Positions 4,369 to 62,382 are shown, counted from the first letter of the stretch. The stretch: DNA of 64,000 nucleotides from Psilocybe cubensis (GCA_017499595.2 CM038998.1:372001-436000); one strand, 5' to 3'. Numbers and translations are program-made. The notes: generated by a model not told the origin, from the letters alone.

Positions 4369-5165
4369 TCATGACGATGCTGGAAAGGTTTGTCCAATTA
4401 TCAGTAGGCCCATATGAAATAGTATGATGTACCTTCTTCAGAAAAAAAATTATTATTGCATGCCTCAAAATATGGGATGGTGCATACCTTTTCAGTTAAT
4501 TCGTTTGTAGGACTATCATTCAAGGGGCCCCTAAAATTGCAAAGGGCGTTAGTACGCACCACATGTGTTTAATCTGTACGTGTTCGTTCTACCGAAAACC
4601 ATCCGCTGCGGACAGAGATGTTCCTTTAAAGGCGGCAGGTAAATAGCATGACTCGATGGCATCACTATCAGGACGTACCGTTATCGCATCACATCTTACA
4701 GATTTCCTGAACGAGGCTTGTCGGAACGAATTCTTGAAAAGATTGTTGTTTTACGTTCCTTCCTGAACACAGGGGTCATTTCGCATCGTTCTTCTATGTG
4801 TCTCCGAGGATCGATAACAATCAGTGTGGGATTTCCATACCTACAATCAGTCGGAATATCCAATGGAATTCAGACCTGCATGACTCGTTGTTAGATCGAG
4901 AACTGCACACAACGATTAGAAGCATGTCATCTTTTTAAAATAAAATCATGTTAGATGCGATGGGATGTGTGATCGACGCACGCAGCACAGCCCCCACAGC
5001 CTACTGGAACTATAAAGCGACGTCGAATTGCCCTGGAGCCTCCCTATCGATCTTCCACAGGAAGGTAAGTGCCCTAGTCCACAGCTTCTAGCCATTTTTT
5101 GACATGTCATCTTCCTCGATAACGTAGACGATGCGTGCCTCAAGGTTCATGGCCTCAAGACCGGC

Positions 5166-5715
5166 TGTAAGAGGTGAGGATAGCGATCGCTTTCCTGAGT
5201 CCTTCGTACTCTGGCTGATCATTCTATCCTTAGCTTGAATCGTGCCATCAAGAAACCGTTCGCAACGTCGGTTGGCACTGTAGTAGGTTCTGATAATTGA
5301 GATGGACTAAAACATAAAAAAGAACTGGTAAATAGACGATACCGAGATAGACGTAGTTGAGGTGCAGACAGATATAACTGACAAACAGCAAAGCGCCACG
5401 GACCACCGACAGGGAGTAATCGACACGCAAGAAGCCATCGACACAAAACGGCGGCATCCTCGACAGACGACACGACACAATACGACCAGTTAGAATCGAC
5501 AAGCGACTCGGCACATACAGCACACGACAACCAGCAACACCTAAGACTTCAAGCCTCAAGACCTCAAGGTTCCTGGGGAAGGGGAGCTTGGACGACCAGG
5601 CCATATCATTAGACGGTGGCTGGGCGGAGCGGCTCTCCTCGTGCATACCTTGTCGTTGGTCCCTGGGCTTCGACTCCTCAGCGAGTCGGGGTGTGGTCTT
5701 GCTGGTGCAGGAACA
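5166..5715 (-). mobile_element. Possible solo or partial LTR relic
   Basis: About 550 bp bounded by TG...CA (TGTAAGAGG...GGAACA), strong strand skew and repeated CCTCAAG words. No TSD and no partner LTR in the window. Confidence 0.35.
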
Positions 5716-5960
5716 CACCTTACCAAATGCACGTTAAAAACAACCTTGTGCTCTTCAGTCGTTCGCGTCGATCTAGTATTTCGAACGAGTCAAAGTAGAT
5801 AGATGAATAGATTGCGGAGTATGATTCCTAGTTGATGCCTCAAGAGCGCAAATGCTATTCAGCGATTCAGCAAATACACAGATAAGAAAAAAAAGGATAT
5901 AAATTAGTTTCGCTGATGATTAGTACTTGAGCTCTTTTCGATATTCAGGCGCGGACATGT

Positions 5961-8434
5961 CTACCAAATGCCCGTGTTCCATTCCTTCCACGTCGACGTC
6001 GCCTTGATCCATTCGAGGAGCTCAGAGCGTTTCACTTGTGTGCCTTTGTCTGCGCTCTCAATCTTGACTTTCTTGCCATCGACAAGCTCCCATCGTTGTT
6101 CTTTGACGGTCACAAGTCCGGCTTTGAGTTCGTCGGCGCCAAGGATGATCGCGAATGGCACCTCGTCCTTCTCACCCGCTGCAAACTGAGCAGCGATCTT
6201 GGGCTTGGATTTGGCGAGGAAGTCAGACTGTAGATCATAAAGCCACGCGAGACATCGCGTTAGAATGAGGGATATCATATACATTGCAAGTGAAAACAGA
6301 CCTTGATACCAGCAGCTCTAAGCTCCGTAACCAGCTCAACACGCTCCGCCAACAGTCCATCACCCGCGCTCATAACGTACACCATCGTGCCCTTCGCGCG
6401 ACCGCCCTTCTCCACCCACTTAGGCCACACCAGAGCAAAGATACGGTCCACGCCGATACTGACACCCACACAGGGTGTACTGCCGCCAGGGCCCATCGCC
6501 TTCTTGCCCTCTTTCGAGTTGGGGTCCACTCCAGCGGCGCCGGCAAGGAACGCACCCACAAGCCCGTCATACCGCCCACCGGCGGCGATGGACCCCACGC
6601 CGACTTGGGATTCGTCGATCTCTTTCTCTTCGTCGTCGGCAGCAGTGGCTGCGGACTTGGACTTCTTCTTGGGAGCGGGTGCAGGTGTAGGTGGGGCAGC
6701 GTCGGAGGGAGGTGCGGCGAGTGCGTTGGCATCCTTGAACCCAGGTGGTGCGCTGGCTTCTACGATTGCCTCATAGATGATTCCTGTGTAGTAGTCGAGA
6801 CCGCGAGCCAGTGACATGTCGAAAGAGATCTGTAAAATGTTTAAGTACGCAGCACCGAAGAAGAAGAAAAAAATCTTGTCACTTTGTCGAGAATCTTGTA
6901 CGCCTTGAGCAGGCCAAAGAGGATAGACATTTCGCTGAGGCCTTGTTTAGCACTTTTGTTTGAGGAAAGCAATTCGTCGGCCTCCAGAAGTGCCAAGAGT
7001 TCAGGTCCACCTGCAGACTGTTGAGCTATGTGAAGAATAGGCAGTGAACATACGAACCTTTGTGCTTGACGTATTCTCCAATCTTGTCGGCCACAGCTGG
7101 ATCAAGGCCTTTCTCCTCCGTCATCTCCTTCTTCACCTCGGCCCATGGAAGCTGGGTAACGAGTCAGAATTAGGTTGCACAAAAAGAAATATAAAGTATA
7201 CCTTGTCTAATTTGTCTACAGCAGATGAAATACTTCTAATCTTTTCGGCGGGAACACCGCATACTTCAAAGATGCCGTCGAGAATTTTACGGTGGTTGAG
7301 CTTGATGGTGAATTCACCAACGTCGAGCTTGGAAAGAACAGTGCAAAGCATGCTCAAGATTTCGCCATCGGGAATCATGGGATCCCAGTGCCCTGTGATA
7401 TCAAAGTCCTACAGGAACATAAACAACTGAACGATCAAAAAGCGTGAACTGAACATACGGCTTGCATGAACTCTCGCATTCTGCCTTTGCTCATCACCGG
7501 GTTGTCACGTCGATATACCTTTCCGACCTGCCAGATCTTGCTCTGGGGCGCGGTACCTCCAATCATGGCGACATATCTGGCGAGAGGAACGGTGTGGTCG
7601 TATCGCAGTGCTAACTCTTCACCTCCCTGGTCCTTGAGATCGAAAATGAGCTTTGCGTCCTCGCCATACTTGTCCGTCAACACGTCCTTGCGCTCGAACA
7701 CGGGCGTGTCAAGACAAGAACCACCGTACGTTGTGAATGTATCCTTAATGATACGGTCGATGTGTTCGCGACAGAACATCTCGGCGGGGCCATAGTCACG
7801 GGTACCCTAATGGCAAAGAAAAAGAGAGGACATTAATTACGGAACGAAATAAAGTAATACCAGAACATACCTTGGCAGTCTTCAGCAAAAGCCTCTCCTT
7901 CTTCTTCTTTTCCTGAACCTGTTGATCTCCTCCTTCAACCTTCTCAGCCTTCTCCTTCTTCTCCTTCCCAGCACCTTTGGCAAGCGCTAGCGACTTTTTC
8001 AGATCCGAAAGTGTCTTCTTCGCGTCGTCCAGGGGCTCTCCCTTTAACCTCAGTTCGTTGAACTTTGCGGTTTGAACGACGATCTCTGCCTCTAGTTCGG
8101 CGATGCTTAAACCCGATGTAGACGCCATCGTCGATTGCGTTCGTCGATCGTGTGATATAGATCCTTGGTGGGGAGGTAAGACGGAGGCGATATCAATGAA
8201 CCTGCCTGGGCTTCGTAAAATCGGGGTTTTCAAGACTGCCTTTGCTAAAGCGGTCCTAGAAGTACACGAAATGCGTTGAAAGCTATGAAAACGGCGACAC
8301 TGACGACCCTTGATCGTCGGTGAGTTGTGGGCAGTGTCGATGGAAACGAAATGTGAGGTAGACTCTGAAACTAGCTGGCGATATAGAGACCTTGCTGACG
8401 ATGATACAGATAAAGAAGGAGCTTTATGGATCAT
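5961..8434 (-). CDS. HTS1: Histidyl-tRNA synthetase (class II), probably serving both cytosol and mitochondria
   Basis: [87 protein letters not shown] and an anticodon-binding C-terminus. In-frame ATGs at 8434 and 8128. Confidence 0.97.
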
Positions 8435-9140
8435 CCAGCTCTAATTATCTTTTTCGGTGGATGCCAAATTTCCGTGTGACCGTTGGCGGAGGCAAGATCG
8501 TTTGTGACGTCGGCTAAGTCGGCCGCGGCAGCTTCGGTTCTCCTGATCAGACTCAGCCTGGAAAGAATTAGTGCAAAAGAATCCTGGACAGAAATTCGAA
8601 CAGACTATCATTTATTCCTAGCTTTTCCCGGTAGCCCAACCATCGACCTTGCGCAAAATTAGGGAACGAAATAGAAGATATCTTTTGCTCCAAAGTCAAC
8701 AGGCCCGCCGATGTCCCACATCCATGATTATACAGACATAAGCCTTTCGGGCTAAAACACAAAGTCTACATAACAAAGTGTATCATAAAAATCGTAAAAC
8801 AAGGCAACGGAATTTAAGGCGAAAAGCTCTGTGTTAATGACTCGCAGTCAAGTTCAGTAAAGTAAGTACCAGTTCGTACCGGAAAGGTATATAAATTACT
8901 CGTTCCTAATATTCGTATAGCGCATGTCGATCGTCATTAGCGTAAGCAACACCATCCACCCCTCGACACACACTTCTAGTCTTGGATACAACATTCCTAC
9001 ACCTCCGTATTTCTTTACTACACTGGTATCATCCATCTCCTCGTACAAAAACGTAACTTTGGTCATCACAAATAGTCTGTTTCACCACTGCCAACCGATG
9101 AGCTTCAAAGATCGATAGACCATATGGATCGACCAGTCAT

Positions 9141-10863
9141 TCAGGCCTTCTTCCCTTTGGGGGTGCTTGGAATTGATCCGTTTCCTTGAATTTGCTCCTT
9201 TGCATCGCGCCACACACCATTGGCATCTCGTCGCTGGACTCTGAAGCAAGCGACGCCCAAGTACTCCGTGATATCGCCAATGACAAGGGTCACAAAGCGC
9301 GCGTACGCGATAAACGAGACGGCAAGGGTAATCCACACAAAGATCGTAGTGTGCTTCTGCGAGCGTTGGATAATCGGAGACCTACGAGTCAACGCCTCCG
9401 TCAATTTCTGCCCACTCAAATACACACAACCAAAATGACAAAACTTACATTCCGAATAACGGCAGGTTGGCGTCGAGCCCGCCGAGGAAGCTCCACACCC
9501 ACACCCAGTCCCAGACAGGGAACTTATCCTTCGTAACGTGTGCCAAGATCATGCGGCCAACCATATGTGCGAACTGGAGACCCCACGCGCAGAGGAACGG
9601 CACGAAGGCGGCGGAGTCGATGATATACGAGTTGTTGAATTTGGGGTGGGAGAGCCAGAGGATCTGAAGGATGGAGGTCAATAGGAAAGGGAATAGGAGC
9701 AGCAGCGGAGGAGTAGTTGAGTGGGTTAGATGTCCCGCAGATGAGGATTTTGATTTCAGAGAGAGAGCGCGTCGGACGTTCATGTAGGACGTGATGATGT
9801 TGAATCCGAGCCCCAGAGCACCGAAGACCATAAATGACTCGTTAAGGGGAAGATCTGGGAGTCTGCTGATCAGAGGGACGTGGTTAAGGCGGGTAAATGT
9901 CCAAATTCCCTGTTCCCAAAAGCCAGGACCTAATGGGGGTCAGGTATGTTAATGTGAAGGGAAAAAAGTCGCGCACCGTAGAAGCCACTGATGATATAGA
10001 TGGCCACAATCATCAATATTCCTTCCACAGGGCCAGAGAAATATCCCAAGTACAGTTGGCCGGTATGATACTCCTCCCAAGTTGTGAGGTAGAAATTGGC
10101 AAGGGTGGCAATTTGAGATGCTACTGTCCACCAGCTTCGTCCGAGCCCTAGAGCGCGAGATGCGAGAATCACTTCGAGCTTCGGGTCCGAAAGGTTAGAC
10201 AAGGAAGAAAACCAGCAGTAGCGTTTCTTACAGTCGTGTTCAGCGCGTCACAACCTGTCAACGACAAGAAAGGAAATTTGAGAATCGCCTGCACGACACA
10301 TGGCACCAGAACACGCACCATGATCAAACAACTCCCCAAGTGGTCCAGCCATTCCTGTTCTTCGTGCTTGCTTACTGCAAAAGAGATAAGGACCTACAAA
10401 CGTTATTATATCAAAGAACGTACCCATCGATGGCATCCAAAGTCTGATAAGCAAACAAACTGAACCCCCATGTGAAGTAGATCCATTGTGGTGGTCCTTG
10501 GTCTGGTGAGCCGTCTTTTTCTGTGAGGTAGCATGGGTCGTAGTAGATGAGCGTGAAGAAGTTTAGGAAGATGATAGATAGGCCGGTAAGTGTGATCTGA
10601 TGTCGCCCTTGAGCAAAAAAACGCTGTCAGAGAAGAAAAATCGCAACATACCGTGTTGGGAGCTATGTTCAAAGGCCACAATGTGACGAACCAAGTCCAA
10701 AATGGATTAAGAACGTAGCCCGAAAGCAATGACCTATGAAAATCAGATTTAATAATGCTCAATGACTCTGCAATGATGCATCTGGTAGAACTTACTTATC
10801 AACACCCTTGTAGGCATATTTCTTAAGATTCTCGAGGTTCTGCTGCGGGATATAACGACCCAT
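9141..10863 (-). CDS. Choline/ethanolamine phosphotransferase (CPT1/EPT1 family, CDP-alcohol phosphotransferase)
   Basis: Spliced MGRYIPQQNLENLKKYAYKGVDKSLLS...APNTITL and the CDP-alcohol motif LDAIDG|KQARRTGMAGPLGELFDHG|CD; FYLTTWEEYHTG, GPVEG; several transmembrane segments. Confidence 0.95.
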
Positions 10864-12524
10864 TATACGATATATTTCTGAAATCAGGAATATGATTAAA
10901 AATGCTTAACAACTGTACACGACGATGCTCGCGACGTTGTGTGTACAACCATATTTGCGTCATTAATGACCATGGTTACTACCCCGTCGGTGTATCGACA
11001 GAATTTGATGTGAAAATTGGACGCACTACTTGGTATTAGATGAAAAACTCCAGTTCTAATGGTTAGCCGCACCTCCGAGTTCAAACCCGGAGCGAAAGGG
11101 GGAGGAGGAAAGAGTTGTAAACACGAGCCACGTCGATGACGGTGAGTGGATATCGTACACGAACCTTTTTGATCGAAAAAATGCGGTCCTCATCGCACGT
11201 GATCCAACTTCGGACCGATTAGGGGCTACGCGCTACCCTTCAAAACAGCAGAAACTGATGTCTTTTCTCAACTTGAGTGCAAAAAATTTAGGAACACTTT
11301 TATGCTTCACAAATAGTACCCAATTGCTCAAAAAAAAGTAGTCCAATATACCTCCACTGTGAAATTCTATCCAAATGTGTTGCCGGTCAGCAAAAGGGAT
11401 CCCAGGATCACGCTCAAGCTGTCACATTACGACCGAAACTCCGACCCGATATCTTTTATTGGTTCGGCTTCTTTCTGTGACTTGTTGCGATCATTGTTAT
11501 GACCTGTGGGCGCTTAACAGTCGGTTTACCGTCTCAAGATTGTTCAGCAGACGAAATATAGGGGAAAAAAGAGGTGGGGTCTAGGGTACTCTATTAATAG
11601 AACTAGGAAGATTCTCCGAGGTATACCCCATCAATTTACGATTTGGCCCATCGATAAGTCGGCTTCAGAGGGTACAAATAAAGAGGGTGCTTACTACTGC
11701 TTACGGGATTCCCTGATCTATCTGAGCTGTACATAGGTATATCCACATGAATTTTTGAGCAATGACAGTGAGGTGATGACTTGAATTTCACTACTCGAGT
11801 TTTCCTCCAAAAACGAGAGGTTGATTCTTGAGGCTATGCCAAAAATATCAGTTTCTAGTACAACAAAGCGCTCTTGAGTATTGTGATATTCACTGTGCTA
11901 CTATGCTCTCTCCGCAGTAAGTATAACGTCGAGGGAGGTAGGATATTCACACGGTTTAATTTTTTTAAACTTCTGTTCATTCTCAGAACATCATAGAACG
12001 CCGAACAGATGTGCTGGCGCGGGTCCAATAAAGGGCACATCGCTTTCGTCTCAACGAAACACGGTCACGCATTGCACATACGTTTTGGGACCGTGACTCC
12101 AAGGGTCTCCGCTTAATTTCTGTGGCATTACCCTTCCTTTCCTCACCTACCCACTTCTGCCTACTTCTCCCCCGACCATTTATCCCTCACCAGCAATCGT
12201 TACAGCTTATTGCTGCAGTAAGTAGTCTTCCAGCACCTAGTAGAATTATTTGACCGAACAGCCGTAGGATCCAAAGTTTCTGCGACTTCCCCATTCCCGT
12301 GAGGATTGAGCGCATTTAGCGAGGTATGTTCTTGGGCTCTAGTAAGCAATAAGGCCCAGTCGCTGATGAGGCCTCTTAGTTGCGCACATTCTCGCACCAC
12401 GAATAAACCACTATCGACTCCGTGTCTGAATCCGCAAACCGTGAGTTCATCACCAGAGGTAATGCCTTGGAGTACTCTCTCAACGACTAATTCCGATTGT
12501 AGGCAGGTCGGTTTTTCTATAACG

Positions 12525-48140: not shown

Positions 48141-51010
48141 ATGCTGCATAAACAGGCCCACAGTTTGATCTTTCGCAACTGTAAGTTGATTAAGGATCAA
48201 AGAACGTTTATTCGCTGATCGCTATTCAGTTTTAACGACCGATTATACGTCCACTAAGGCGACGGCCTTTGTGAGTATCAACCTTCACAACGTATACTGC
48301 AAATTTCAATTGGTGGCAATTATATATCCCTGCAGACTCCAGATATCATTCCTCAGTTTGGTAACACCGTCGATCCGGCCCTTTTGATCGACGAATACGA
48401 CCAGTTTATCGGTCTTCCTGTTCAACCAAGCGAAAGAAACAATATTTACGTTCGAGGAAAAACGACATCGAATGTGGTGCCGGGATCTAAAACTGCTATC
48501 GTTCTCCGTGCCGTACCGAGCGAACTCATTTTATGGCCTCAAGCGTGGAACAAGGTGACACCGACTGGTCCAGGACCCTTGGTTATTGATTCTTCTATTC
48601 CCAACAAAGGTAATGGTTCAAATTGTTGGAAAGTATAGCATTACTAACCGCTGTTGCTAGTTGTTACGTTAAGCACGCCTTTCCAATTTTCACCGTCCAA
48701 CCTGTGTGGTTTCAACTTTGCGTTGATTGCTACACAAACCCCACTCCCTGAAACCAAACGAAACACTCGTCTGAGAGACACATTGCCTCCTCCTCCTCCT
48801 GACGCTAAAAATTGGAGAGAACTCGTCAACTTCTTCAACACCGACACTTCGACAGTTTATTATAACGTATGATGACATGCTTTTTGTTAGGAGAATGACA
48901 ACTAATCTAAATGATAGGTCGTCGTCGCAGATCCAAATGCTCCTGTCATCAGTGTTTCTACGCGTCTCCGTGTTGTTGACAATGGTTCAGACCCACTCAA
49001 CTTCAGAATTACCATTGAGGTATTTGCTTCATATCATATGGTTAAGACGAAACATTAACGTAAATGTCACTTTGTAGACCTCGATAATGCCGGAGGGAAC
49101 CTTTGTATCTCTCTCTTCCTCGACTGGTCTGATCAGCCTTCAAAAGACTCGTCTTGCAGACGACATTGGTGTCCGGGTTAAGTTGGCGCCGGGATTTGAC
49201 GACATTATTACTCTTTGTATCTTTCCTGACCCTAAAGGCATCATCGAAACCTTCGCCTGGGTATCACTCCAAGCTAGTATTATTCCACCTCAGACAGTAA
49301 ATTCTGGAGCCACCCCAATCAGCAAAGTCGTCTTACTTGGTGCTCTGAATATCATTTTCCACGACGACGCTGCCACGAACTTGAAACATGCAAGTCCTGC
49401 GGCAAATCAACTAAAGAAGCTGGTTGAGACGGTAAACATGGGGGAAAGGAGCGAGGTTCCTCATGCCCAAGCGGGTACCATTACTTCTCAGAGTACTAAC
49501 GTAACCGGTGCTGCAAATGGATGGTGGTTCCGTGATGCTATAGGCGATCATAACCTCTTTCCGAGGACGGCCAGCCTGTGTCATTCACCTGGTATGGGTG
49601 TACTTAATCTTCTGGAAGTATATTTCTGATCCGCTGCTCCGCAGATATTCAACCTGTAGGTATAACACCCAGGTCCGACTCTCAGCAAATTCTAGGCGGG
49701 TCAAATGCGAATACGGATTGGACCGATGCGAATCGTGTGGTTATTCAACAAGGCGCGCCGAACTACATATACGTTCGTGGAAATTGCACATTGGGTAGTG
49801 ACTATCCCGTTCAAATGCGACTCTTCTGTGTCCCAAGCGCTTTACTCCTTTACCCGCCTATGTATTCGCAATTCTCGGTCACTGACGCTGATGACCACAG
49901 TAATCCGTTTGTTGCCATTCGAAACATCACATCTACTTCTTACAATAGTTTCAATGTGGTGGACACGGCGTTCGACCTCTTAAACCCTCAGCGTCCACCA
50001 TCAGGAAGTGATCACTACTGTCTAATTGCCGAGACTCGCAGTCCGACTACCGAGAACCCCGACCCGGATTGGCCACACGAAGACACAGGCTCATTTAGCT
50101 CAGGTATTTAAATATCTGTGTCTGATAAATCGATTCAAGCCAATTGACCTTTGCTTCATTAGGCGCTGGATTCAACACATGGATAGGTAGCACCCCTACC
50201 GTCTGTTGGAGAAATGTTGGTTACAAGACTGGTGGTGCCCAAGTTATATGTTCTACCAATGTCACAATTCCAGCTGGACTATATTCGTCATCTACTCAGT
50301 GGACATTGGAAGTCGATGCCGACAACGCCCCTGTCGGTTCCGCTTGTGCGTATACATCCTATTCGAGACTTATAATGAAGCATTTACAAATTGACCTCTG
50401 CAGGGTCGTTGACTGGAAATGGCCCTTCAATTCCAGGTGTCAACATCGGATTTGCTCAAACAACAATTACGGCCCCAAACATGGTCTGCGTGCATTCTAG
50501 CTTTGGATTTATATTGGCGGACTAAAGGGACAATTCTAGGTTGAAGGATGCCACTTTACTGGGCTTCCCGCTACCGGATACTCATTCTCAGTCGTCCTTC
50601 AATGGTTTTCCAATGGCAAAACTCCCGGAAATAATATGAAATTCTCTTTCCTTTTGTATACAACACAACGAACCACAAGGTAGGCTTCTTCATGACTACT
50701 TGCATATCTCGTGAAACTTACACTATCTCAACGTACTAGCGCAAACGGTAAATTGATGAAAACTACCACCGCTAGGACCCACCGCCAAGAAGCAGCTGAT
50801 TGGCCATTTACGGTCGGTATACATCATCCAGGAGTCGAGGACAAAGGCGACGGCAACAAGAAGCACATAGGATATCTCGGTCACCGCTTCAAGAAGGTCG
50901 GACGCAACCCTTGGCCTCATGCGAAGGTGGACAAGGTGACTAAGTTGAAATCCGTCTCACCTGTTCCCGTCTATGCTATTGGTTCGGACCACTGGAACGT
51001 GAAATTCTGA
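48141..51010 (+). CDS. Uncharacterised tandem-domain protein family, copy C (11 exons)
   Basis: MLHKQAHSLIFRNF|LTTDYTSTKATAF|TPDIIPQFGN... with equivalent intron positions to copy A and an open frame through DHWNVKF-TGA. Confidence 0.9.
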
Positions 51011-51594
51011 TAATATACGCAAATCTCTAAAACTCGTTCTTTGTATTTTACTTCGTTCCCTTTCATCACAACTAACAAAAAAAATCTTGTATTGATCGTT
51101 TTAGGGCCATTTATAAATAAACCTACCTTTGATATAATACCCGTTTGAAGATGCGTCGAAAGTGACAGATCGAGCACGATTAAGTAGTACTAAATGGTAA
51201 CTCTGTGAAAGGAAGGAAGGAGGAATGTGTCGTGACAAGGTACACTGGTCTCTCGAGTGAAGATTGCACCTATCTAGTAGCCTGTCGTATATGCGGCTTT
51301 CTAGATTTTCATTTACGAGGTCCTACCAGACCAAATCAATCAATCTTCATACATACACGAATCATCTACTCTGTCCAAAACGACAGTGGCATATGAGTGA
51401 AGCCTTTCCCGCACAGTTTCCTCACTTGGTAGAAGCCAGAGATTGCACTAGATGAAACCACGGACGCATGTGCAGCTGTAAAAATTACGGTGCTGTCGTC
51501 TTTAAGCGACTTCGGGAGCTTGTGGACCTTCAGAATTGAAATACAACCCGACTAGTCGGTCGTATTTGGGGTTTACCGATCATGGGGGTGGGTA

Positions 51595-51824
51595 TGTTAT
51601 CTGCCAGTTATCTGCCCGGAAGATTCCGAGAGGACATAGTTTCGCTCTTTACTCGACAACTCCACGGTTTTAGACTGTGAAAGTTGACATTGACGTTGTT
51701 TATAGGCAATAAAAGACTAATATCACTTCAGATTTATAAATGAGTGAGTGAGTGAGCTCAGAAACATGAATATGTTATCTGCCACAGCCAATGTTATCTG
51801 CCACTCCCCTATTGTTATCTGCCA
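51595..51824 (+). repeat. Five subterminal (T)GTTATCTGCC(A) direct repeats
   Basis: Copies start at 51595, 51607, 51773, 51792 and 51813, beginning immediately inside the left TIR. Confidence 0.85.
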
Positions 51825-52071
51825 GCACACCATTTTCAGTCCATTAGCTAATGCATTCTAAATTCCCAACTCTGTTATGGTACCAAAATCGTAACTGGTT
51901 GCGACGAACAAACGACAAAACTTGATAACTCTTGCACTACATTCAATATCCAACATTTGCTCTGTGTAGCATTGAGCCAGAAGTACAGGTATGTCCTTTC
52001 AATCAGCCTGGAGCGTAGAACAAGTTTATTTATCCATTTGTTTATGTACTATTAAACTTGCAGCAACTTGA

Positions 52072-55000
52072 ATGTCGACAAACATTTCAGTTCTATCCGG
52101 AGAAGATCAGGAATCCAGTTCCATTAAAACTGCACGCTCCCATAGCAATATGTCAACCATTGCCCCCGTACAACCACCGCCAGCGGAAACTTTTCATGAC
52201 ACGTCTGAGTTTGTTCGTGACCGTGATGTTACGGGTACGTTAATTAAATCACGTACGTGTCAATGACGTGTTGTACTAACCAACACCGTGTAAACGATGC
52301 ACCTATAGATAGTGAAGCAGATGACGAGTTTGGCTTGGAGTTGGAATTAACAATTGAAGATCTATTTGCTCTTGATGAACTTGAACGTGAAGAGTTGCAA
52401 AAATGGGACAAAAAGGCAAAGCAGGGCAATAGTAAGCAATTAACTACTTTGCAACATTCCTTTACACTCGTTATATTTACTGTTTATCTATACCCATAGA
52501 ATCAGCACCCGAATCCCTCTCACCAATAGCCGAAGATCAGCAGTCAACAGTAACAGATGCCGCTCATATATCCGTTAGGAGTGAGAAGGAGGATCAAACT
52601 CCGTCTCAAATAACCCTTGCACAGCTTCGTGAAGTTGCTTTGCGCTCACAGCGCCGTACGTGTGGATATTTTTGTAAGAGCATTGTACTAACAGTACTCA
52701 TTTTAGAGCCATTTTTTACCCCATATGCTACATACGAGGATAGCGAAACGGATGATGATGCAGACATTAGTGATTGTGAAGACGAGCCCGGGAAACAAAA
52801 ACAAGAGCCTTCTAAGCCAAATGCGAAAGAGAAGCAATCAGGTAAGTTCCGTATGTCTGTGACACTGTATGGGCTTTATATCTCAATGTTGGATTTAATA
52901 GGCTGGTTTAAAAGACCGCAGCATATGCCGGAATGGCTATATGACTTTTTTGTGACTACGGTGCAGCCACTAATCTACGCAAAGCACGGCAGAAAGCGTA
53001 GAATGCCTGCCATGTTTTCCGATAACACTCGAGCATATGCGCCGCTGTCATTCTGGATAAATCCTCCCGAGCCTTGCATTTTACTTTCTAAGTATCGATT
53101 CAATCTTCCCACGCTCTGGCGCCCACGGATCTATGTCTGGATTCCTCACGACTTTGTGAGATCTATGTGCTGCCCAAACTGTGGAAGTCCTCTAGAGAAG
53201 AATGGAGCCTCACGTCCCCGTCGAATTATTGACATTGAAGACAATTTTTATATTGTAACATGGAAATATTACTGCCGTGACGGGTGCAAGTCGGCATTTC
53301 GAGGTTGGAACACAGCCATAATCAATTCTTTGCCTGCATACCTGCGATTGGCCTTTCCAGCGGTGCTTTCTCGCCGGAGCGGTGTCTCCACGCGCCTTTT
53401 ACGTCAACTCCGAGTTTGTAACCAACATAAAATGGGTCCGAGTGGCTATCGGTCAATGTTGCTTGAAAATCACACTTTCAAATTCAACCAAATTCAAAAC
53501 CAATATCTCGAGGCAGTTTTTGAGATGGTTCGTGGACAGCAGCATGCGGCATCAACAGGACAGGAAACATTGCATGCATTTGTTCCTCCAAAGGCTGATT
53601 CATTTGGGAACTTTACGGACCTCGACAAATATGCTGGATTTGTTCCAAGCGAGCGATACCTTGCAAGCATGATGAATAAAGCTATTGAATGGGATGAGGG
53701 AGATGCTAACCAGCACACTGCGTGTCTTGCTCCCGACCAAATTGCAATTGATGACTCACACAAGGTAGCGTTGTCAAATATGTTAGATATATTACATTTA
53801 TTCTATCTAATCTCCCTTGTTTTAGGTCAATAAACATATTGCAAAAGTTGATGGTGTACCGGTTTTTACCGCACTATTTACATGCATGGACTCGAAATAC
53901 ATACGAGGACAGGCATTGACGCTCACCAAGTCTCATGAAGAACGTGCAGGTCCCCTGCAGCAAATAGCTAATTCAATACATCGCTATGGACACGATAGAC
54001 CAAGTGTCATGTACTCTGATGATCCAGTCAAGGTAAGCTCATATATGAATATTTCTATCAGTAAGAAGGTCTTAAAATTAGCCTATTCTAAGGACAAACC
54101 GCTTCTATCCAGTGCTTTCCCGGAACTCTTTGAAGATTTAACACCAACAGCGGCTGCTCATGGCTTGACAGCGCTCAACTTACCTAATGACATCAAAGTG
54201 TCCTGGCTGGCATCGTGGGATGTGACAGAATCTACACTTTCTGCTCTCATGTCGTCGCTTGATTCTGATTCTGACCAATATCTGTGTGTTAGCCTTGATG
54301 CTGAATGGAACTTGTCACGCAAAATTGGAGTGTCAATCATTCAAATTGCCCCTCACAACCTTCCAAATATTATCTATATCATACCCGTACGTGATAATCC
54401 AACTATATTTAAACAGTACCGTGACCAACTATTATCAAGGTTCATAAATTTGGTGACAGACTACCACCATCACTCCTCCGGCTTTTAATATCAAACCAAG
54501 TCTTTAAAGTTGGATCCGGGATCAAGGGCGACATCACTCGATTGAAAAAACAGTTTCCAATTCTAAGCTCGCAGCTGACTTTCAACGTCATTGACTTGAA
54601 AGAATACTGCATTGAGCGTGGATTAATTGCGCGAAAGGCATCTGGATCGCTTGAAGCTCTATGTGAGGGTATTCTCAAGCAGTACCTTCCCAAAGAGCAA
54701 CGGCTCAGACGATGTGAGGACTGGGAACTCAAATCACTAAGCGCCGACCTTCTTCATTACGCTGCACGTGACGTCTTTGCATCGCGCATACTTTTTGAAA
54801 AGGCAATGGAATGCGCGCCTATTTCCCGTCCACGGTTTGACTCACCGGCCGGAACACCTATTGCTCTTCTTTCTCAGGAAGGTAGCGACCCAATTGCATA
54901 TGGTGTCATATCTCCCAATCAACCAACATCACTCGGAAACATTCGGGTTAAAACACCAAATCGCAACCGCCTTGTCCTTGATATAAGCACTGTACTATCA

Positions 55001-57514
55001 CCCTCGGCCGCTGTTATGCTTCATTTGCCATCACTGGGACAGAACCGAAAGGGAAAGACAAAATCGGGAGCTCTTACATTAGAGCAAATACGGGCGTCAT
55101 CCTTGGATCCAAAAACATCCACGTTTAAAATTGTTGCACCGCTCTTGTTAATCGAATTTGATTTTCGAGCATCACCGTCTAAGGTAAGTAAACTGTTACA
55201 ATGAATGTGAATCCATATTAACCCTCAAAATTTCAGTTAATTGACAATACATTGCAACCTAATGACGTGGCATCCAATCAGCGCACAGTTTTAAAGGACA
55301 ATCAGCGGCTTACCGGGTCTAGTACCAAGGAGGATAGCTTGTTGGATGATACTGCCTCTGTGGTCGATGATTTAATCGATGAAACTGAGGTGTCATCTCA
55401 AGACACATTGGATCTGGTTGCTTTGGACATGCTCGAGGCATACTCAAAGGTTGAAAATTCCGAAGGTTTGTTAAATAAAGCTTGCAATGATTGATTTAGT
55501 CTCATATTCATTAAATATCATTAGATACTCAAATAGTGCGGCCTACCACCCAGCCCTCTATTGTGGATACTCTTCAAAAGTTGATTAATTCACCACCCGA
55601 CGCAAAATCCGAGTATACACGCGTGAAGAAGGATATTTTCCACGCATTTCATATGATTCCCATGTCAGTAAATCATGGCGCACGTCCATCTTTTCTCCGT
55701 GCCATGCGTGATCATTTGATGCGCTGGGACCCCACAATCCAAATGGTAGTCGATGAAGCCTGCCGGAAACACTTTAACCTTACGTTTGAGCAAATGCTAC
55801 TCAGAAATCCTCGATTTATTGCCGAACGCACCCCACGATATGTCCCCTCTCCAAGTGTCCTTGTTCCCGCTCTAAAACTGGTCTTTGAGACATTCGGAAA
55901 CGCCTTGGATGTCAAGACAGGATTGCCATTATTCAATGCAGATGCACATCAGAAGGCCAACGCTGTAATTGAGCTTGCACGCGAAGGCTACCTCTCTGAC
56001 ATTGAAGGAGTTGTCCTATACGAGCGAGCAGGAATTGACAAATATGGCCTTCAAAAGTATAAATGCTTACGTGGAACAAACAATGTTGAAGGCGGCCCAC
56101 ATGGTGACATTTACCGAAAGTTTGGCGCTCTTCATGGTGAGCTTTTAATTGCTTAGATATTTTTATAGGACTGATTTTTTTGGATTTTTTGTTATAAAGC
56201 GGGTCCAAGACTCACCGTTAACTGCCTGACTGATCATAGAACATGGTACAATCTACAGGTCAGTTGTTAACATTCTTCATTGACAAGGACTAATAATGTA
56301 CTTGTTTCCAGGCATTTGCAAAACATGTCTTTGGCGTAGACTGGGATTATCACCACGATATTGCATTGATAAACCGAACTTCCTTTCTTCTAAATTATCT
56401 ATCTGATACTATCGATGGATCGGCCTCATATACCGAGTGGATCAATGGGGATCTTTATGAAAGAACTAACGAGGAGTTTGGGATCTGCAAGTTTCCGGGT
56501 AAATTTTAATTTACTAACTTTCTATTGCTCATACTCATGCTGTTTAGATTCACTTCGTATTCGACTGGGAATGGAGTCATATAGCACTCAGGCTGAAGTC
56601 GAGTATCGTCTCAGCTCCAGTGACAGTTGGCTTCGTAAGCGACAAGGCCTGGCTCTTCCAGTATTGCCACCAACGACACTGGAGGCCCGGAAGTATTTCT
56701 TTTCAAAAATTCGCGATTTTGCTGCTCTGGCCAATGATGCCGGCCAAAGTCGGATCAATTTTGAAGCATTTGCGCAGGAGTGGAACCGAACAGCAAACGG
56801 AAAGGATCGAGTATACATTACTACTGAGGTACTAGCAGCCTACTCCAAAACATGGGAAAAAACAACCAATATTTGGGCATCACAAGAACTCATTCAAGAC
56901 AAGCTCGAGGTTCTTCAACAGACAGCAAATGTATTTGCTGCAGAGAAGCAAACCTTTCCAGTATACCTGTCTGGAACATCCGTCTCAACACAGCCTCGAC
57001 ACGGAGTGATTGAAATACCGGAGTCATCGCAATCAGGCAATGTTCCATCTTCGCTCTCTGTTGGTCTTTCAATATCCCGTCCCGCATTACCCACTCCTGG
57101 CCCTACACAGAATATTGATAACTCTGTGATTGATCCCCACTTACTATCTCTTTCTGGTCCAAGGCCTCGTGGCTTAGTGCGGTGAGTATTCACACTGTGG
57201 TTCTCTATCTCAATTTCTCAATTTAATCTCATTGCATCCCGTGTAGTACAGTGTCTGTAACACCGTCACTGGAAAGTCAAAATGAAGACTTGAATATTAC
57301 AAATGAGCGTCCAGCAAAGCGCCGACGCACTGTCCCTGAAAGCGAACGTAAACGTTCCATTCGTAAATGTCGTCGATGCCTCAAAACTACGTGTGCAGGG
57401 AACAGTAATGTACTCAACTGTACCGTTGAGTGCAAGGTTCCGTGTAAAAAATGCAAGCGCACAACAGATTGTCGAGGCGTGGATGGCGGTCGATTCTGCA
57501 CATGGGAAGGGTAG
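52072..57514 (+). CDS. Transposase: Zn ribbon (DUF6729/zf-ISL3-like) + DDE core + inserted DEDDy 3'-5' exonuclease + C-terminal Cys cluster (~14 exons, ~1,550 aa)
   Basis: CPNCG...RRIIDIED...KYYCRDGC; IAIDDSHK; VMYSDDP; exonuclease motifs SLDAEW / IKGDITRL / HYAARDV; RVKKDIFHAF; KCLRGTNNVEGG; RKCRRC...C...C...CKKC...C...C. All exons join in frame through GT-AG introns. The start codon is tentative. Confidence 0.85.
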
Positions 57515-59438
57515 TAATATCATTTTTAATGCTTTATTAACAATTAGAAATATACAGTCGGCCGTGTTCATGACTTTTAAACTACAAGTATTCTACCGAA
57601 CGTCAAGTCCTTTGCAAATTCAGAGTTCAATGTCTCACGCTTTTGGATACACGTGATGCCAGTGAAACATTGGTAATCCCTCTCCATTTTCCTCTTTTTT
57701 TCTTCATTTTTCGCATTCAATACCCACCCCCATCGACGGAAAACCGTATTTGGCCCTGTCCAATTAGGCTTAGTAAGTCAAAGTTCAAGGTCCGCTTTGT
57801 GACTGATGTGACGAAATTGCGGCCCTCTTGTCAATAACGACGGTTTTGACTGGCTTCCACCATCTTCAATCCCCTTCCCATTGCCATTCCTATGGAGGCT
57901 TTCATTTCATGCCTGTACATAGTAGAATATTAAGATTTTGCTCTCCATGAAGCACTGACCCGACATATCATGGCGCGAGAATGACAATTTTTTGTTATGG
58001 CACTTTCTCACGGAACTGGAAAGGAACAAGTACTACAGAATTATGAAGGTAGTCATTCATAAATATTTCGTGAACGGTTTTCAGTGGCATGGTGATGATT
58101 TTTGTGGTACAGGCCGGTGCTATCCAACAATCTACGTTGATTAAAGATTATCTACGCTGCCTACGTCATTGGGAGTGACATCGAAGTGACAGTCCGAGAC
58201 AAGGCCAAGCACAGTCGGACTTTGAATCATCAAATCGGTGGCATCGAAATACGACCGACTAGTCCGGTCGTATTTCAATTCAGAAGGTCCCTAATTAACA
58301 CCGTGCTTCCCTTGAACTATTCCTCCTACAATTCGTATGCCAACAATACTACTGAGGAACGTTTGAGTTATAGAAAAGAATGAGCATGTAATATTCATTG
58401 ACTGAAAGCCTAGAACCCTGATCAGGGTGTGCTTAGCCAAACACGCATGGTAAATTTCGTCTAGTCACTTACTTGTCTAGTCATTCGAACAGTATGTGCG
58501 AACGTGTAATTGGCGGATCACGAAGGCACCTTGCGCCCACAACAAAGAAAATTGTTGCTAGAAGTACACGTCGATCAATGACGGGTGATCATTGGTGTAC
58601 AGATTTTCATCTTCAGGGCCCAGGCTTTAAGGAAAACTCTGGCGCAGCTTTGACTGATGACCTGGCATTTGATGCCCTTTCATTGGCATCAAGTGTTCAT
58701 CCTAGACGTCAAGTGGCTAGATAATATCCTACATAGACTTTGCCCACTGACCTTGAACGAAAGTATAATTTTCCATACTGGTTACTCCCGATTTTAGGTA
58801 GCATGTTTAATATACTTGGTAGTTTAATAAAGTATTGTTCAAGAGGCTTGAATATGTGTCCCTGTCCTGTGAGCCGTTGCTTCGCAGGATGAGAGCCTGC
58901 GAGCCAATTACTTTCTACTTGCTTTGTATGAGCTTTCTTCGCCCTTACAGCTGGGCGGTAATGCCAGCACAAAAGCAGAATGCCGCCATAGAGAAAGAAT
59001 CATTTAAAATGTGTGGTAAATCGAGCGCTTTGCAAGAACGACTTTGGCCCCTGATTAAATCTCAGCCTACAGACGCAAGTGGATAGAATTAAATTAGATG
59101 ATCACGGAAAATTGTGCAGTTATAGCCATGCATAAGGCATACCTGCCTGGTCTTATTTTGAATTTCATTCGAACACGGGGAAGGTCACCTTGTAAAGGTA
59201 AAGCCTCTCAGAGAAGGAGGTCTGGTAGCTGCTTGGAAGCTACACAATAGTTGATAACTTTTTGCCAAATCGATCCAGCGTCACTGTAATGAACACTTGA
59301 CCTGAGCGTGCGCCATGCGCCAACTTAATAGTGCTATGTATCCGATACATGATGCGTGAGGAATGGATTGATGCCGCCTTTGGTACAGCACGATTCGGCT
59401 GGATTGCTTTAGTACGATGTATCTGCTTGACGCGAAGA

Positions 59439-59445
59439 TATATAA
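59439..59445 (+). promoter_or_regulatory. TATA box of family copy D
   Basis: TATATAA 92 bp upstream of ATG 59531. Confidence 0.55.
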
Positions 59446-59530
59446 GCCAGCAAATTTCTCCAAGAATTCTCAAGTTCTACCTCTCCAAGAACTCCTGAGT
59501 CTCAAGCTTCACACAGCCTTTACTTCAAAA

Positions 59531-62382
59531 ATGTCTAAACAAACCAACAAGTTAATCTTTCGCAACTGTGAGCTCGATGCGTCACATAGATTACCTGATC
59601 GCTAACTACTAGATAGTCTTAACCCCCGATTATCCGTCGACCAAGGCGACTGCGTTCGTAAGTATTGTCTTTTTTACAATACAGCACATTTTTTTTACAT
59701 TTATACCACAGACGCCAGATATCATCCCACATTATGGCAACACAATCGATCCGGCACATTTGATCGACGAATATCGCCTGTTCATCAGCCTACCCGTCCA
59801 ACCAAATGAGATAAACAACGTGTACATACGAGGAAAAACGACCTCCAATATGTCGCAAGAATCTAAAACTGCTGTTGTTCTTCGAGCCGTACCTAGTGAG
59901 CTCATCTTGTGGCCTCAAGTGTGGAACAAAGTGAAGCCTACTGGCCCGGGGCCCTTGGTTATGGATACTTCTACCCCAAACAAAGGTAAATGCTCAATAT
60001 CATTGGCAGAAATTCAGTACTGAAGACCATTCAGTGGTTGCTCCGGCTACGCCTTTCCAATTCACGCCATCCAATATGTGCGGTTTCAACTTTGCATTAA
60101 TTGCCACACAGGCTCCAGTACCGAAAATGGAACCAAACACCCGTCTGAGGGATGCGTTGCCGTCTCCTCCTGCGGATGTTAAGAACTGGAAAGAGTTCGT
60201 CCAATTTTTGAACAATGACAATTCAACAGTCTACTATAATGTATGTCTAATTATGTTACATCCATTTAAAAAAACGAGCGTTAACCATGAATGACTAGGT
60301 CATTGTTGCGGATCCAAAAGCTCCTGTAATCAGTGTCTCTACGCGTCTTCGTGTTGTAGACGACGGCACTGTCCCGCTTGACTTCAGAATTACCATTGAG
60401 GTACTTAACCTATTGCGGGTGGTCATGATGCAAAAGTTCTGAACATGTTACAGACCTCAATGATGCCAGAGGGAACCTTTGTATCTCTCTCTTCTTCAAC
60501 TGGCATAGTCAGCCTTCAGAAGTCTGTTTTGGTAGATGATATTGGAGTTCGGGTTAATTTAGCGCCCGGGTTCGACGACACCATTACTCTTAATATCTTC
60601 CCAGGACCCGAGGACACCATCGAGACATTCGCCTGGGTATCTCTTCAGGCCAGTATTGTTACACCCCAGACAGAACCTGCCGGAGGCACCCCAATCAGCA
60701 ATGTTGTCTTGCTTGGCGCTCTGAACATCGTTTTCCATGATGACGCTACCACTAATTTGAGGCACGCAAGTCATGCAGCAAACGAGCTTAGGAAGCATGT
60801 TATTCAGGCACAGGCAGAAAACAAGGTCGACATGGTTCATGCTGCTGCTGCCATTGCCCAGAATACGAATGTGAGAGGTTCTGCAACTGGATGGTGGTTC
60901 CGTGATGCTATGGGAGATCCAAACTACTTCCCACGGACAGTTAGTTTGTGTCATTCACCTGGTAGGATTCCACTCGTTTGTTTAAAAACATTATTCTGAC
61001 GTCTGCGCTATATAGACATTCAACCCGTAGGCACAAGGCCTATGTCCAATTCTCAACAAATTCTCGGTTGGTCAAATTCCAATGTGGATTATACCGACGT
61101 GAATCGCGTAGCTCTTCAACAAGGAGCGCCGAACTACATTTATCTGCGTGGGAATTGCACTTTGGGCAACGATTATCCTGTGCAAATGCGACTCTTCTAT
61201 GTCCCAAACGCTTTGCTCCTTTACCCACCTATGTATTCACAGTTCTCAGTCACTGACCTGGACGATCATAGCGACCCATTTACCGCTATTCGAACCATCA
61301 AGTCTACGAACTACAACAGTTTCAATGTGGTGGACAAGGCCTTCGACCTCTTAAACCCTTTGCCCCCACCGCCGGGAAGTGACCACTACTGTCTCATTGC
61401 CGAGGCCCGCAGTCCTACTTTTGACAATCCTGATCCACACTGGCCACATGAAGACACTGGTGCATTTGGCTCAGGTAATTAATTACCTTTATTGAATAAA
61501 ATACTTCAGCCAAATGACCATTGGTTTTCTAGGTGCCGGGTTCAACGCATGGATTGGTAGTACTCCTACTGTCAGCTGGAGAAACATTGGTTATCAATCC
61601 GGCGGTGCTCAGCTCATAGTTAGTACGAATGTCACCATTCCGCCTTATTTATACTCGTCGTCTACCAACTGGACTGTGGAAGTAGACGCCCAGAATGCCC
61701 CTGTCGGTTCTTCTTGTGCGTATTCATTTATTCTATTTCAGACTGGGCATGGAGCATTTTAAATTATCATCTACTGCAGGGGCGTTAACTGGAAACGGGC
61801 CTTCGATCCCAGGTCTCGACATCGGGTTTTCTCTCTCGCCAATTACGTCTTCAAACATGGTCTGCACGCATTTTGGTTTTCGAAGTATATTCTGACTTAC
61901 GGAACCACTATAGATCCAAGGATGCCACTTTACTGGACTTCCGGTTACCGGATATACGTTCTCTGCCGTACTGCAATGGTTCTCCAATGGTAAGACTGCT
62001 GGAGACAACATGAAAATCTCTTTGCTTCTGTATACGACCGACGCAGGCCCAGGCCCTGGGTAAGCTTCTTAATTCAGGATACATCCACAAATGCAAGTTG
62101 AATCAAAATGCCAGGCCAATCCGGTTTAAAGAAGCCACTCCTGCCAAGACTCTTCCCAAAGAGGCAGCCAATTGGCCATTTACGGTCGGTATACATCATC
62201 CAGGAATAGAAGACAAAGGCGACGGCAAAAAGAAACACACAAAATATTTGGGACATCGCTTCAAGAAGGCCGGGGCCAACCATTGGCCTCATATGAAGGT
62301 GGACAAAATAACCAAGTTAACCGGTATCGTGCCTACTCGCATCTATTCTATTGGATCGGACCACTGGAACGTGAGGGTCTGA
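59531..62382 (+). CDS. Uncharacterised tandem-domain protein family, copy D (11 exons)
   Basis: MSKQTNKLIFRNF|LTPDYPSTKATAF|TPDIIPHYGN... with equivalent intron positions to copies A and C and an open frame through DHWNVRV-TGA. Confidence 0.9.

Follow-up and report, generated by a model that had tools for sequence, protein, structure and literature searches.

A probable Dada transposon with an exonuclease inside its transposase and well-defined ends in Psilocybe cubensis

The element, its ends and its gene

Our analysis of a 64,000-nt stretch of the Psilocybe cubensis genome (GCA_017499595.2 CM038998.1:372001-436000, here called the window, whose coordinates are used unless a contig is named) found at positions 51570-57745 a DNA transposon of 6176 bp, which is apparently intact and autonomous and which we place, with a probability of about 0.8, in that fungal branch of the Dada superfamily whose members carry an exonuclease. 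The element is bounded by terminal inverted repeats (TIRs) of 26 nt, complementary at 22 of 26 positions (85%), and directly outside them stands a perfect 8-bp duplication, GTATTTGG; between the ends lies a gene whose predicted product is a DDE transposase with a 3'-5' exonuclease embedded in its core. An intact, intron-containing transposon with TIRs, a target duplication and a 14-exon open frame is what an earlier reading of the sequence (the original prediction) had proposed, and in these respects it was borne out. The features are the following.

51562-51569, no strand: left copy of the duplication GTATTTGG; the empty-site joint described below skips 6184 bp, that is 6176 + 8
51570-51595, + strand: left TIR, GGTTTACC...TGGGTAT, one arm of the inverted pair; ends kept in 8 termini of 5 elements
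51596-51823, + strand: subterminal direct repeats GTTATCTGCC, five copies (51596, 51607, 51774, 51793, 51814)
52072-57514, + strand: transposase gene, 14 exons, 1557 amino acids (aa)
exons 1-5, + strand: 52072-52234, 52309-52431, 52500-52655, 52707-52841, 52902-53764
exons 6-10, + strand: 53826-54032, 54093-54386, 54440-55183, 55237-55465, 55525-56136
exons 11-14, + strand: 56200-56258, 56312-56498, 56548-57181, 57247-57514
53171-53287, + strand: N-terminal zinc ribbon of four Cys (C283, C286, C317, C321), within Pfam DUF6729
53750-53752, + strand: catalytic D476 (first D), on strand beta-1 of the predicted RNase H-like fold
54018-54020, + strand: catalytic D545 (second D), just after beta-4 in the models, aligned to the second D of IS256
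54162-54820, + strand: WRN-like DEDDy 3'-5' exonuclease (D618, E620, D678, Y754, D758), including the intron 54387-54439
55632-55643, + strand: DxxH motif, D1008-I-F-H1011, aligned to the C.vH motif of IS256
56088-56090, + strand: catalytic E1160 in RGTNNVEGG, E in 46/50 homologues
57368-57499, + strand: C-terminal Cys-only cluster C1510-C1553, preceded by a basic stretch, KRRR...KRSIRK, resembling a nuclear localization signal
57720-57745, - strand: right TIR, ...GGAAAACC, the other arm of the inverted pair; conserved termini
57746-57753, no strand: right copy of the duplication GTATTTGG, from direct comparison and empty-site reads

A scan of 51000-58300 returned 27 inverted pairs, and that of the TIRs stands out from the rest; 22 or more matches in 26 would be expected by chance about 0.008 times when all placements over 7.3 kb are summed, and the chance of a GTATTTGG match at two fixed places is 1.5e-5. 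Whether the duplication measured 8 bp, or 9 bp with the adjacent C, had been left undecided in the original prediction. Whether the ninth shared base, C, belongs to it is ambiguous in the window copy, and the two other complete elements described below settled the length at 8 bp, since in one of them (L203) the two sides differ at the ninth base. Comparison of 8 termini from 5 elements gave GGTTT.CC and TGGGT as the common parts (G1 G2 T3 T4 T5 C7 C8; T20 G21 G22 G23 T24), and the consensus end can be written as GGTTTACC-N11-CTGGGT. There are five copies of the subterminal repeat GTTATCTGCC, all in the leftmost 255 nt of the element, and none at the right end, and its 12-mer has 4 matches where 0.42 are expected; these repeats are likely the binding sites of the transposase. 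No further copy of the element was found elsewhere in the window.

The predicted gene consists of 14 exons, joined through 13 GT..AG introns of 49-74 nt into a single stop-free frame of 1557 aa. This model is supported by three kinds of comparison: a deposited Psilocybe cubensis protein named 'Exonuclease 3'-5' domain-containing protein 2' (P0045) is identical to our translation over residues 370-1175 and 1258-1469, skipping exons 11-12 and being without exons 1-4 and 14; homologues of other genera are colinear with it over ~1300-1500 residues at 45-58% identity, and include the parts that P0045 omits; and a paralogue deposited as 'Werner Syndrome-like exonuclease' (P0002) is 80.6% identical over its full length. 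In run X13, which we guessed to be an RNA run, the inside of the element has zero depth, and this says nothing on expression.

The order and the positions of the protein motifs were also as originally proposed: IAIDDSHK at 53741-53764, VMYSDD at 54006-54023, KKDIFHAF at 55626-55649 and RGTNNVEGG at 56070-56096. Counted across 50 homologues, the first catalytic residue, D476, is D in 43 and falls in a gap in the other 7, with no other residue at that place; D545 is D in 48 (2 gaps), D1008 and H1011 of the DxxH motif are kept in 47 and 48, respectively, and the four Cys of the zinc ribbon in 36-42, the remainder being mostly gaps. The catalytic residues of the exonuclease are kept in 48-50 of the 50. 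The exonuclease sits inside the transposase core, between the second D and DxxH, as part of an insert of ~435 aa. The Cys pattern of the C-terminal cluster recurs unchanged near the C-terminus of 8 other family members. Between the exonuclease and a disordered acidic linker, a further, small beta-rich domain of the insert is modelled with confidence at ~54860-55160 (residues 787-887).

Searches of the nine exon translations against Pfam matched two of them, exon 5 to DUF6729 (E 1.3e-19) and exon 8 to DNA_pol_A_exo1 (E 2.1e-7), with no Pfam match for the other seven, and across 36 partial and 18 longer relatives the sole transposase family matched was MULE, in 1 of the 18 at E 0.13. A profile search against the sequences of the PDB likewise gave exonucleases only (WRN exonuclease, E 1.8e-31) and no transposase, and NCBIfam just sub-threshold polymerase and exonuclease rows. 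Labelling of such proteins as exonuclease or DUF6729 proteins had been anticipated and is what the database labels show. The homologue search returned 1130 representative clusters at E <=0.001, and transposases of this family account for hundreds of fungal entries that bear the names '3'-5' exonuclease', 'Werner syndrome-like exonuclease', 'EXD2' or 'DUF6729 protein'. Pfam DUF6729 itself appears to be the zinc ribbon and pre-core region of such transposases; a search for literature on DUF6729 found none.

Structure prediction is consistent with a DDE triad on an RNase H-like fold, which the models display for the N-terminal half of the core. AlphaFold models were obtained for P0045 (52 sequences, predicted local distance difference test (pLDDT) 78.8) and for an N-terminal fragment, P0004 (63 sequences, pLDDT 76.7); the N-terminal half was folded separately, and exonucleases filled the fold searches made with the whole model. 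Both models have the order beta1-beta2-beta3-alpha1-beta4-alpha2 (DSSP), with D476 on beta-1 and D545 after beta-4. The exonuclease domain aligns with 2e6l (WRN) at Z 24.8 and a root-mean-square deviation (rmsd) of 1.9 over 183 residues. The only non-exonuclease among the best 50 matches of the long model is 6xg8_A (ISCth4; Z 10.6, rmsd 3.8, 234 residues aligned), a protein that by sequence belongs to Transposase_mut/IS256 (E 4.7e-42). The same structure is the sole Foldseek match of the N-terminal half at E <=0.001 (8.6e-4), and VIA-align also places it first (Z 6.5, though with rmsd 10.6), ahead of cores of retroviral integrases at Z 5-6 and of the P element and Hermes transposases at Z 4.3; these Z values are below the level at which they could stand alone, and the informative part is the composition of the match list, in which residues 476-570 of the N-terminal model are matched by cores of integrases and transposases.

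Other copies and empty sites

Evidence for mobility came from public reads and metagenome contigs. In run X8, the raw reads of another strain labelled as the same species, a joint from 51560 to 57745 is carried by 77 reads, with 9 ambiguous letters, and skips 6184 bp. As this is the length of the element plus one 8-bp copy, the joint represents a precise empty site. A contig of run X12 has the same empty junction, beginning at 57745 with the left flank before it. Empty sites in another strain had been proposed as a check and were thus found, but they are probably paralogous copies of the target other than the orthologous locus, because the target region 57756-58443 has ~4x single-copy depth and because X11, X12 and 19 X8 reads are without a whole 8062-bp block at the orthologous locus. 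About 500 X8 reads start matching at 51569/51570 behind flanks that differ from one another (consensus agreement 0.39-0.43), and the left end is therefore present at many sites.

Copies elsewhere, with 8-bp duplications different from that of the window, were also found as expected. Scanning metagenome contigs with exon 10 gave 29 loci, three of which (L196, L203 and L217) were long enough to expect both ends. L196 holds at 5137-11266 a complete element of 6130 bp whose 28-nt inverted repeats are perfect and whose duplication is AAAAGAAG, and L203 at 6145-12117 one of 5973 bp whose inverted repeats measure 24 nt (83% complementary) and whose duplication is CTTATTGT; comparable ends were looked for in L217 and none were found. 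Both complete elements share the GGTTTACC...GGTAAACC ends with the element of the window, carry the GTTATCTGCC motif 200-250 nt from the left end, and encode the protein from residue 191 through the C-terminal Cys cluster. In the related element of L217 the subterminal motif takes the form of perfect 25-nt palindromes, AGTTATCTGCCATGGCAGATAACTT, at 706-730 and 903-927, a symmetry which suggests that the motif could be bound as a dimer site.

The open frame, the perfect duplication and the presence or absence of the element among strains together suggest recent activity. We infer that the element is probably still mobile at present. Two further observations on X8 concern the ends. First, some reads join 57745 to 51569/51570 across 6 nt, with the spacers TTCGT plus G and AATCAC in 4 reads each; these right-to-left junctions could be circles, head-to-tail copies or chimeras. 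Circles closed by a short spacer are a feature of IS256-type elements. Kojima and Jurka report Dada copies arranged in tandem with 6 bp between them (PMC3706591). Second, ~470-570 reads share with the element only 51570-51606 and 51772-51803 and then continue into a uniform other sequence (agreement 0.88-0.99), which indicates a related subfamily of higher copy number, or else a derivative that is non-autonomous and shares these ends.

Relationship to Dada and to other transposase families

Dada was described by Kojima and Jurka in 2013 as a superfamily of DDE transposases with DxxH after the second D, an N-terminal CCCC zinc finger, a zinc finger of the CCHC type at the C-terminus, introns and lengths of 4666-10979 bp, and it was delimited by sequence similarity to reference transposases; a DEDDy exonuclease between the second D and DxxH marks a branch from Laccaria bicolor and Ectocarpus, whose families Dada-1_LB and Dada-2_LB (Laccaria bicolor) measure 5.65 and 7.8 kb by their coordinates (PMC3706591). 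The element described here agrees with that layout in its DxxH, the position of the exonuclease, the N-terminal CCCC, its many introns and its length of ~6 kb, and it shares with Dada-1_LB and Dada-2_LB the host order Agaricales as well as a transposase core without Pfam match. The spacing of the catalytic residues fits equally well: D1 and D2 are 69 residues apart, compared with 68 in Dada-U6_DR (D567, D635, E811), and the distance from D2 to E, 615 compared with 176, falls to ~180 when the insert of ~435 aa is subtracted. According to Muszewska et al. 2017 (PMC5751038), fungal Dada occur in four phyla and the Dada core matches no Pfam family. The relatives that can be named agree with this range, in that 18 of 20 looked-up proteins carry a species and all 18 are from Agaricomycetes, Mucorales or a chytrid. 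In the ESM Atlas, taken as no more than a lead, it is Chordata, the principal Dada hosts, that have the most DUF6729 clusters. The element is ordinary in kind, a clean example with well-defined ends of something known since 2013, and the novelty of lineage claimed in the original prediction finds no support, as its authoring model had itself foreseen for the case of an already described superfamily. The contrast it drew between DxFH here and CxxH in eukaryotic families fails as well, since Dada itself is defined with DxxH.

Several points weigh against this placement and against the picture of an intact mobile Dada element. Membership was deduced from the match to a published layout rather than from direct protein alignment; word-based protein searches (one of them limited to 2845-5000 aa) gave fungal proteins only. 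Described Dada make 6-7-bp duplications and insert in U6, U1 or tRNA genes, and their U6 and U1 families have no TIRs (PMC3706591), whereas here the duplication is 8 bp in 3/3 complete copies, inverted repeats of 24-28 nt are present, and no RNA gene lies at any of the 3/3 sites: in the window there is no Rfam match at E <=1 in 50800-59800 and no tRNA, and the targets of L196 and L203 likewise have no Rfam or tRNA match. A conserved cluster stands at the extreme C-terminus here as it does in Dada, but it contains only Cys and no His, unlike the CCHC of Dada. The spacing of the zinc ribbon also differs, being CxxC...CxxxC here and Cx4C...CxxC in Dada-U6_DR. The helix carrying E1160 is modelled with low confidence (pLDDT <50 at residues 789-807 of P0045), because P0045 is without exons 11-12, and the RNase H-like DDE fold expected from the outset is thus recovered for the N-terminal half in two models and not confidently for this helix. 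The splicing of the 14-exon gene is a prediction from the sequence. Finally, the depth of X8 in the interior of the element is about single-copy, and many of these reads are 90-95% alike, some of them maybe paralogues.

With regard to target and termini, the 2013 text places in small-RNA genes every Dada whose termini could be clearly defined (PMC3706591), and this implies that the Laccaria families were without defined termini there. Since those families were nevertheless classed as Dada, small-RNA targeting would be a trait of many members rather than a criterion of membership. For the exonuclease branch, of whose termini that text gives no description, the locus and the two metagenome copies supply clear ends, 8-bp duplications and targets other than small-RNA genes.

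The first alternative is a separate eukaryotic lineage outside Dada and allied directly with bacterial ISL3, a reading we consider improbable. The motif likeness on which it draws is real but not significant: a CxxCG...C..C zinc ribbon at the N-terminus, D.FH behind the second D and E-G where the catalytic E stands recur in the consensus of 21 ISL3 transposases (C..Cg...r..r.l...Rv.C..c; D2, then D.FHv 21 columns on; Eg.N..ik), to which the fungal family answers with CPxCG...PRRxxD...YYCRxGC, DIFH and VEGG, although the N after E-G is not shared. The distance from DxxH to E, 152 here, is also nearer to that of ISL3 (~132 columns) than to that of IS256 (~86, both by consensus count). ISL3 elements have 8-bp duplications and GG ends. 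Profile comparison with hhalign, however, gave every slice of the fungal family <=2.3% against ISL3 (E >=0.02), with the best N-terminal match non-colinear, and the zinc ribbon scored 0.4%, no better than against IS66 (0.6%). There is no match to PF01610 in the nine exon translations, the 36 partial or the 18 longer members, the D1-D2 spacing of 69 is near that of IS256 (66) and Dada-U6_DR (68) and not that of ISL3 (~55), and the exonuclease layout had already been published as Dada.

The same comparisons brought out a weak likeness to IS256. The D1-D2 region matched IS256 at 43.6% (E 2.4e-4, 85 columns) with D1, D2 and FP aligned, and the core without the exonuclease columns at 15% in local (E 1.8e-3) and 29% in global mode (E 1.1e-4), with DIFH on C.vH; against IS66 or IS4 no slice exceeded 0.6% (E >=0.09). 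The sets comprised 21 ISL3, 25 IS256, 15 IS66 and 7 IS4/IS5 transposases, all of one bacterial phylum, and were aligned without secondary structure, and weak values are in that setting no proof of distance; the control of ISL3 against IS256 reached 97.9% (E 5e-13), and the method therefore has power. ISCth4 is the closest solved non-exonuclease fold, D1, D2 and C/DxxH align, FP lies 14 residues after D2, T-N-x-[IV]-E leads up to the catalytic E, and the D1-D2 distances are close (66 and 69). Differences are also plain, since IS256 elements are bacterial, encode ~400 aa without introns, zinc ribbon or exonuclease, and have CxxH and not DxxH; the profile match is weak (15-44%), the insertion domain is ~86 compared with 152 here, and no match to PF00872 was found in the translations, partial relatives and longer members searched. 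We looked for a solved ISL3 structure for comparison and there is none, so that the fold cannot decide between ISL3 and IS256. The family is within the IS256/ISL3-like C/DxxH group. Of the ISL3/IS256/MULE radiation first proposed, a DDE transposase of the C/DxxH group stood, and a closer relationship to ISL3 found no support. A broader connection is conceivable and in our judgement rather unlikely: the exonuclease-bearing fungal elements, perhaps all Dada, could represent in eukaryotes what the ISL3/IS256 stock is in bacteria. They would have in common with ISL3 the 8-bp duplications and GG ends as well as the zinc ribbon, D.FH and E-G, and may transpose, like IS256-type elements, through abutted-end (circular or tandem) intermediates, hinted at by the X8 reads that join the ends across 6 nt. 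No relevant paper treating Dada together with ISL3 was found in the literature searched.

It is also quite improbable that the element is a divergent member of MuDR/MULE, hAT, P or Kolobok that captured its exonuclease independently. Duplications of 8 bp, the typical length in hAT, are also known from MuDR and P (PMC3706591 and PMC10045372), the fold most alike is that of an IS256-family transposase whose deposited name is 'Mutator family transposase', the faint MULE match already mentioned concerned a family member, and a row of the ESM Atlas at 0.86, taken as a lead only, carries PF20700 Mutator. These indications are set against the lack of any significant Pfam match to MULE, Transposase_mut or hAT in the exon translations and the partial and longer relatives, the Z of just 4.3 for Hermes and the P element, obtained with the N-terminal half, and the zinc ribbon, D1-D2 spacing and exonuclease position, which fit published Dada.

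Very improbable, in turn, is an immobile host gene in which a WRN- or EXD2-like exonuclease was fused to a domesticated transposase, as the deposited names 'Exonuclease 3'-5' domain-containing protein 2' and 'Werner Syndrome-like exonuclease' and the full conservation of the exonuclease residues might suggest. The domain is indeed that of the DEDDy exonucleases WRN, EXD2 and Nibbler, with all of D, E, D, Y and D kept, but it is embedded in the catalytic core of a transposase instead of being attached to a helicase or standing alone, and TIRs and 8-bp duplications flank 3/3 complete copies, empty sites exist, copies are many with differing flanks, the DDE and DxxH residues are conserved, and genomes contain many paralogues and many truncated gene models.

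Zisupton makes 8-bp duplications, and rows of the ESM Atlas at 0.88-0.90 for exon 5, as leads only, carry the KDZ-associated Cys clusters CxC4/CxC5, yet membership in KDZ (Kyakuja-Dileera-Zisupton), a group common in Agaricomycetes, is hardly credible, given that single-sequence Pfam scans matched no KDZ transposase or CxC family, that the DxxH signature and IS256-like fold point elsewhere, and that literature pairing Kyakuja with an exonuclease was sought and not found.

Possible mechanism and the surrounding locus

For a Dada element of this layout, the following course of transposition can be proposed. Binding of the GGTTTACC-N11-CTGGGT ends and the GTTATCTGCC repeats would fall to the zinc ribbon together with the helices that precede the core, the DDE site would cut at the GG/CC termini and would join the ends to a target opened with an 8-bp stagger, and the built-in exonuclease would probably trim exposed 3' ends or flanks; trimming of 3' ends by the Dada exonuclease was proposed by Kojima and Jurka (PMC3706591). 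The basic stretch before the C-terminal Cys cluster could serve nuclear import. A copy that looks intact and is polymorphic among strains is a candidate for testing the role of an exonuclease inside a DDE transposase.

The locus into which the element inserted has a structure of its own. The ~4x depth of 57756-58443 and the presence of the same segment in a 4.9-kb contig of X13, where a 64-nt GT..AG intron is removed at 58047-58110, indicate that the target is itself multicopy, possibly a transcribed repeat. A 44-nt inverted repeat at 51524-51567 and 58247-58290 encloses the element together with ~500 bp of its right flank, and the transposon is located at the inner edge of the left arm. The core of this repeat is palindromic, GACTAGTCGGTCGTATTT, and matches twice in the window where 0.05 matches are expected. 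The 8062-bp block, 51302-59363, that is absent in the contigs of X11 and X12 and in the 19 X8 reads (joint 51301 to 59364) consists of the transposon, the surrounding repeat and ~1.1 kb more; inverted repeats or a duplication of its own were sought for this block and none were found. The segment 58444-58787 has nearly no depth in all four runs. Upstream of the polymorphic block, at 50240-50679, there is a gene with GT..AG introns at 50346-50403 and 50483-50538, as seen in a contig of X13.

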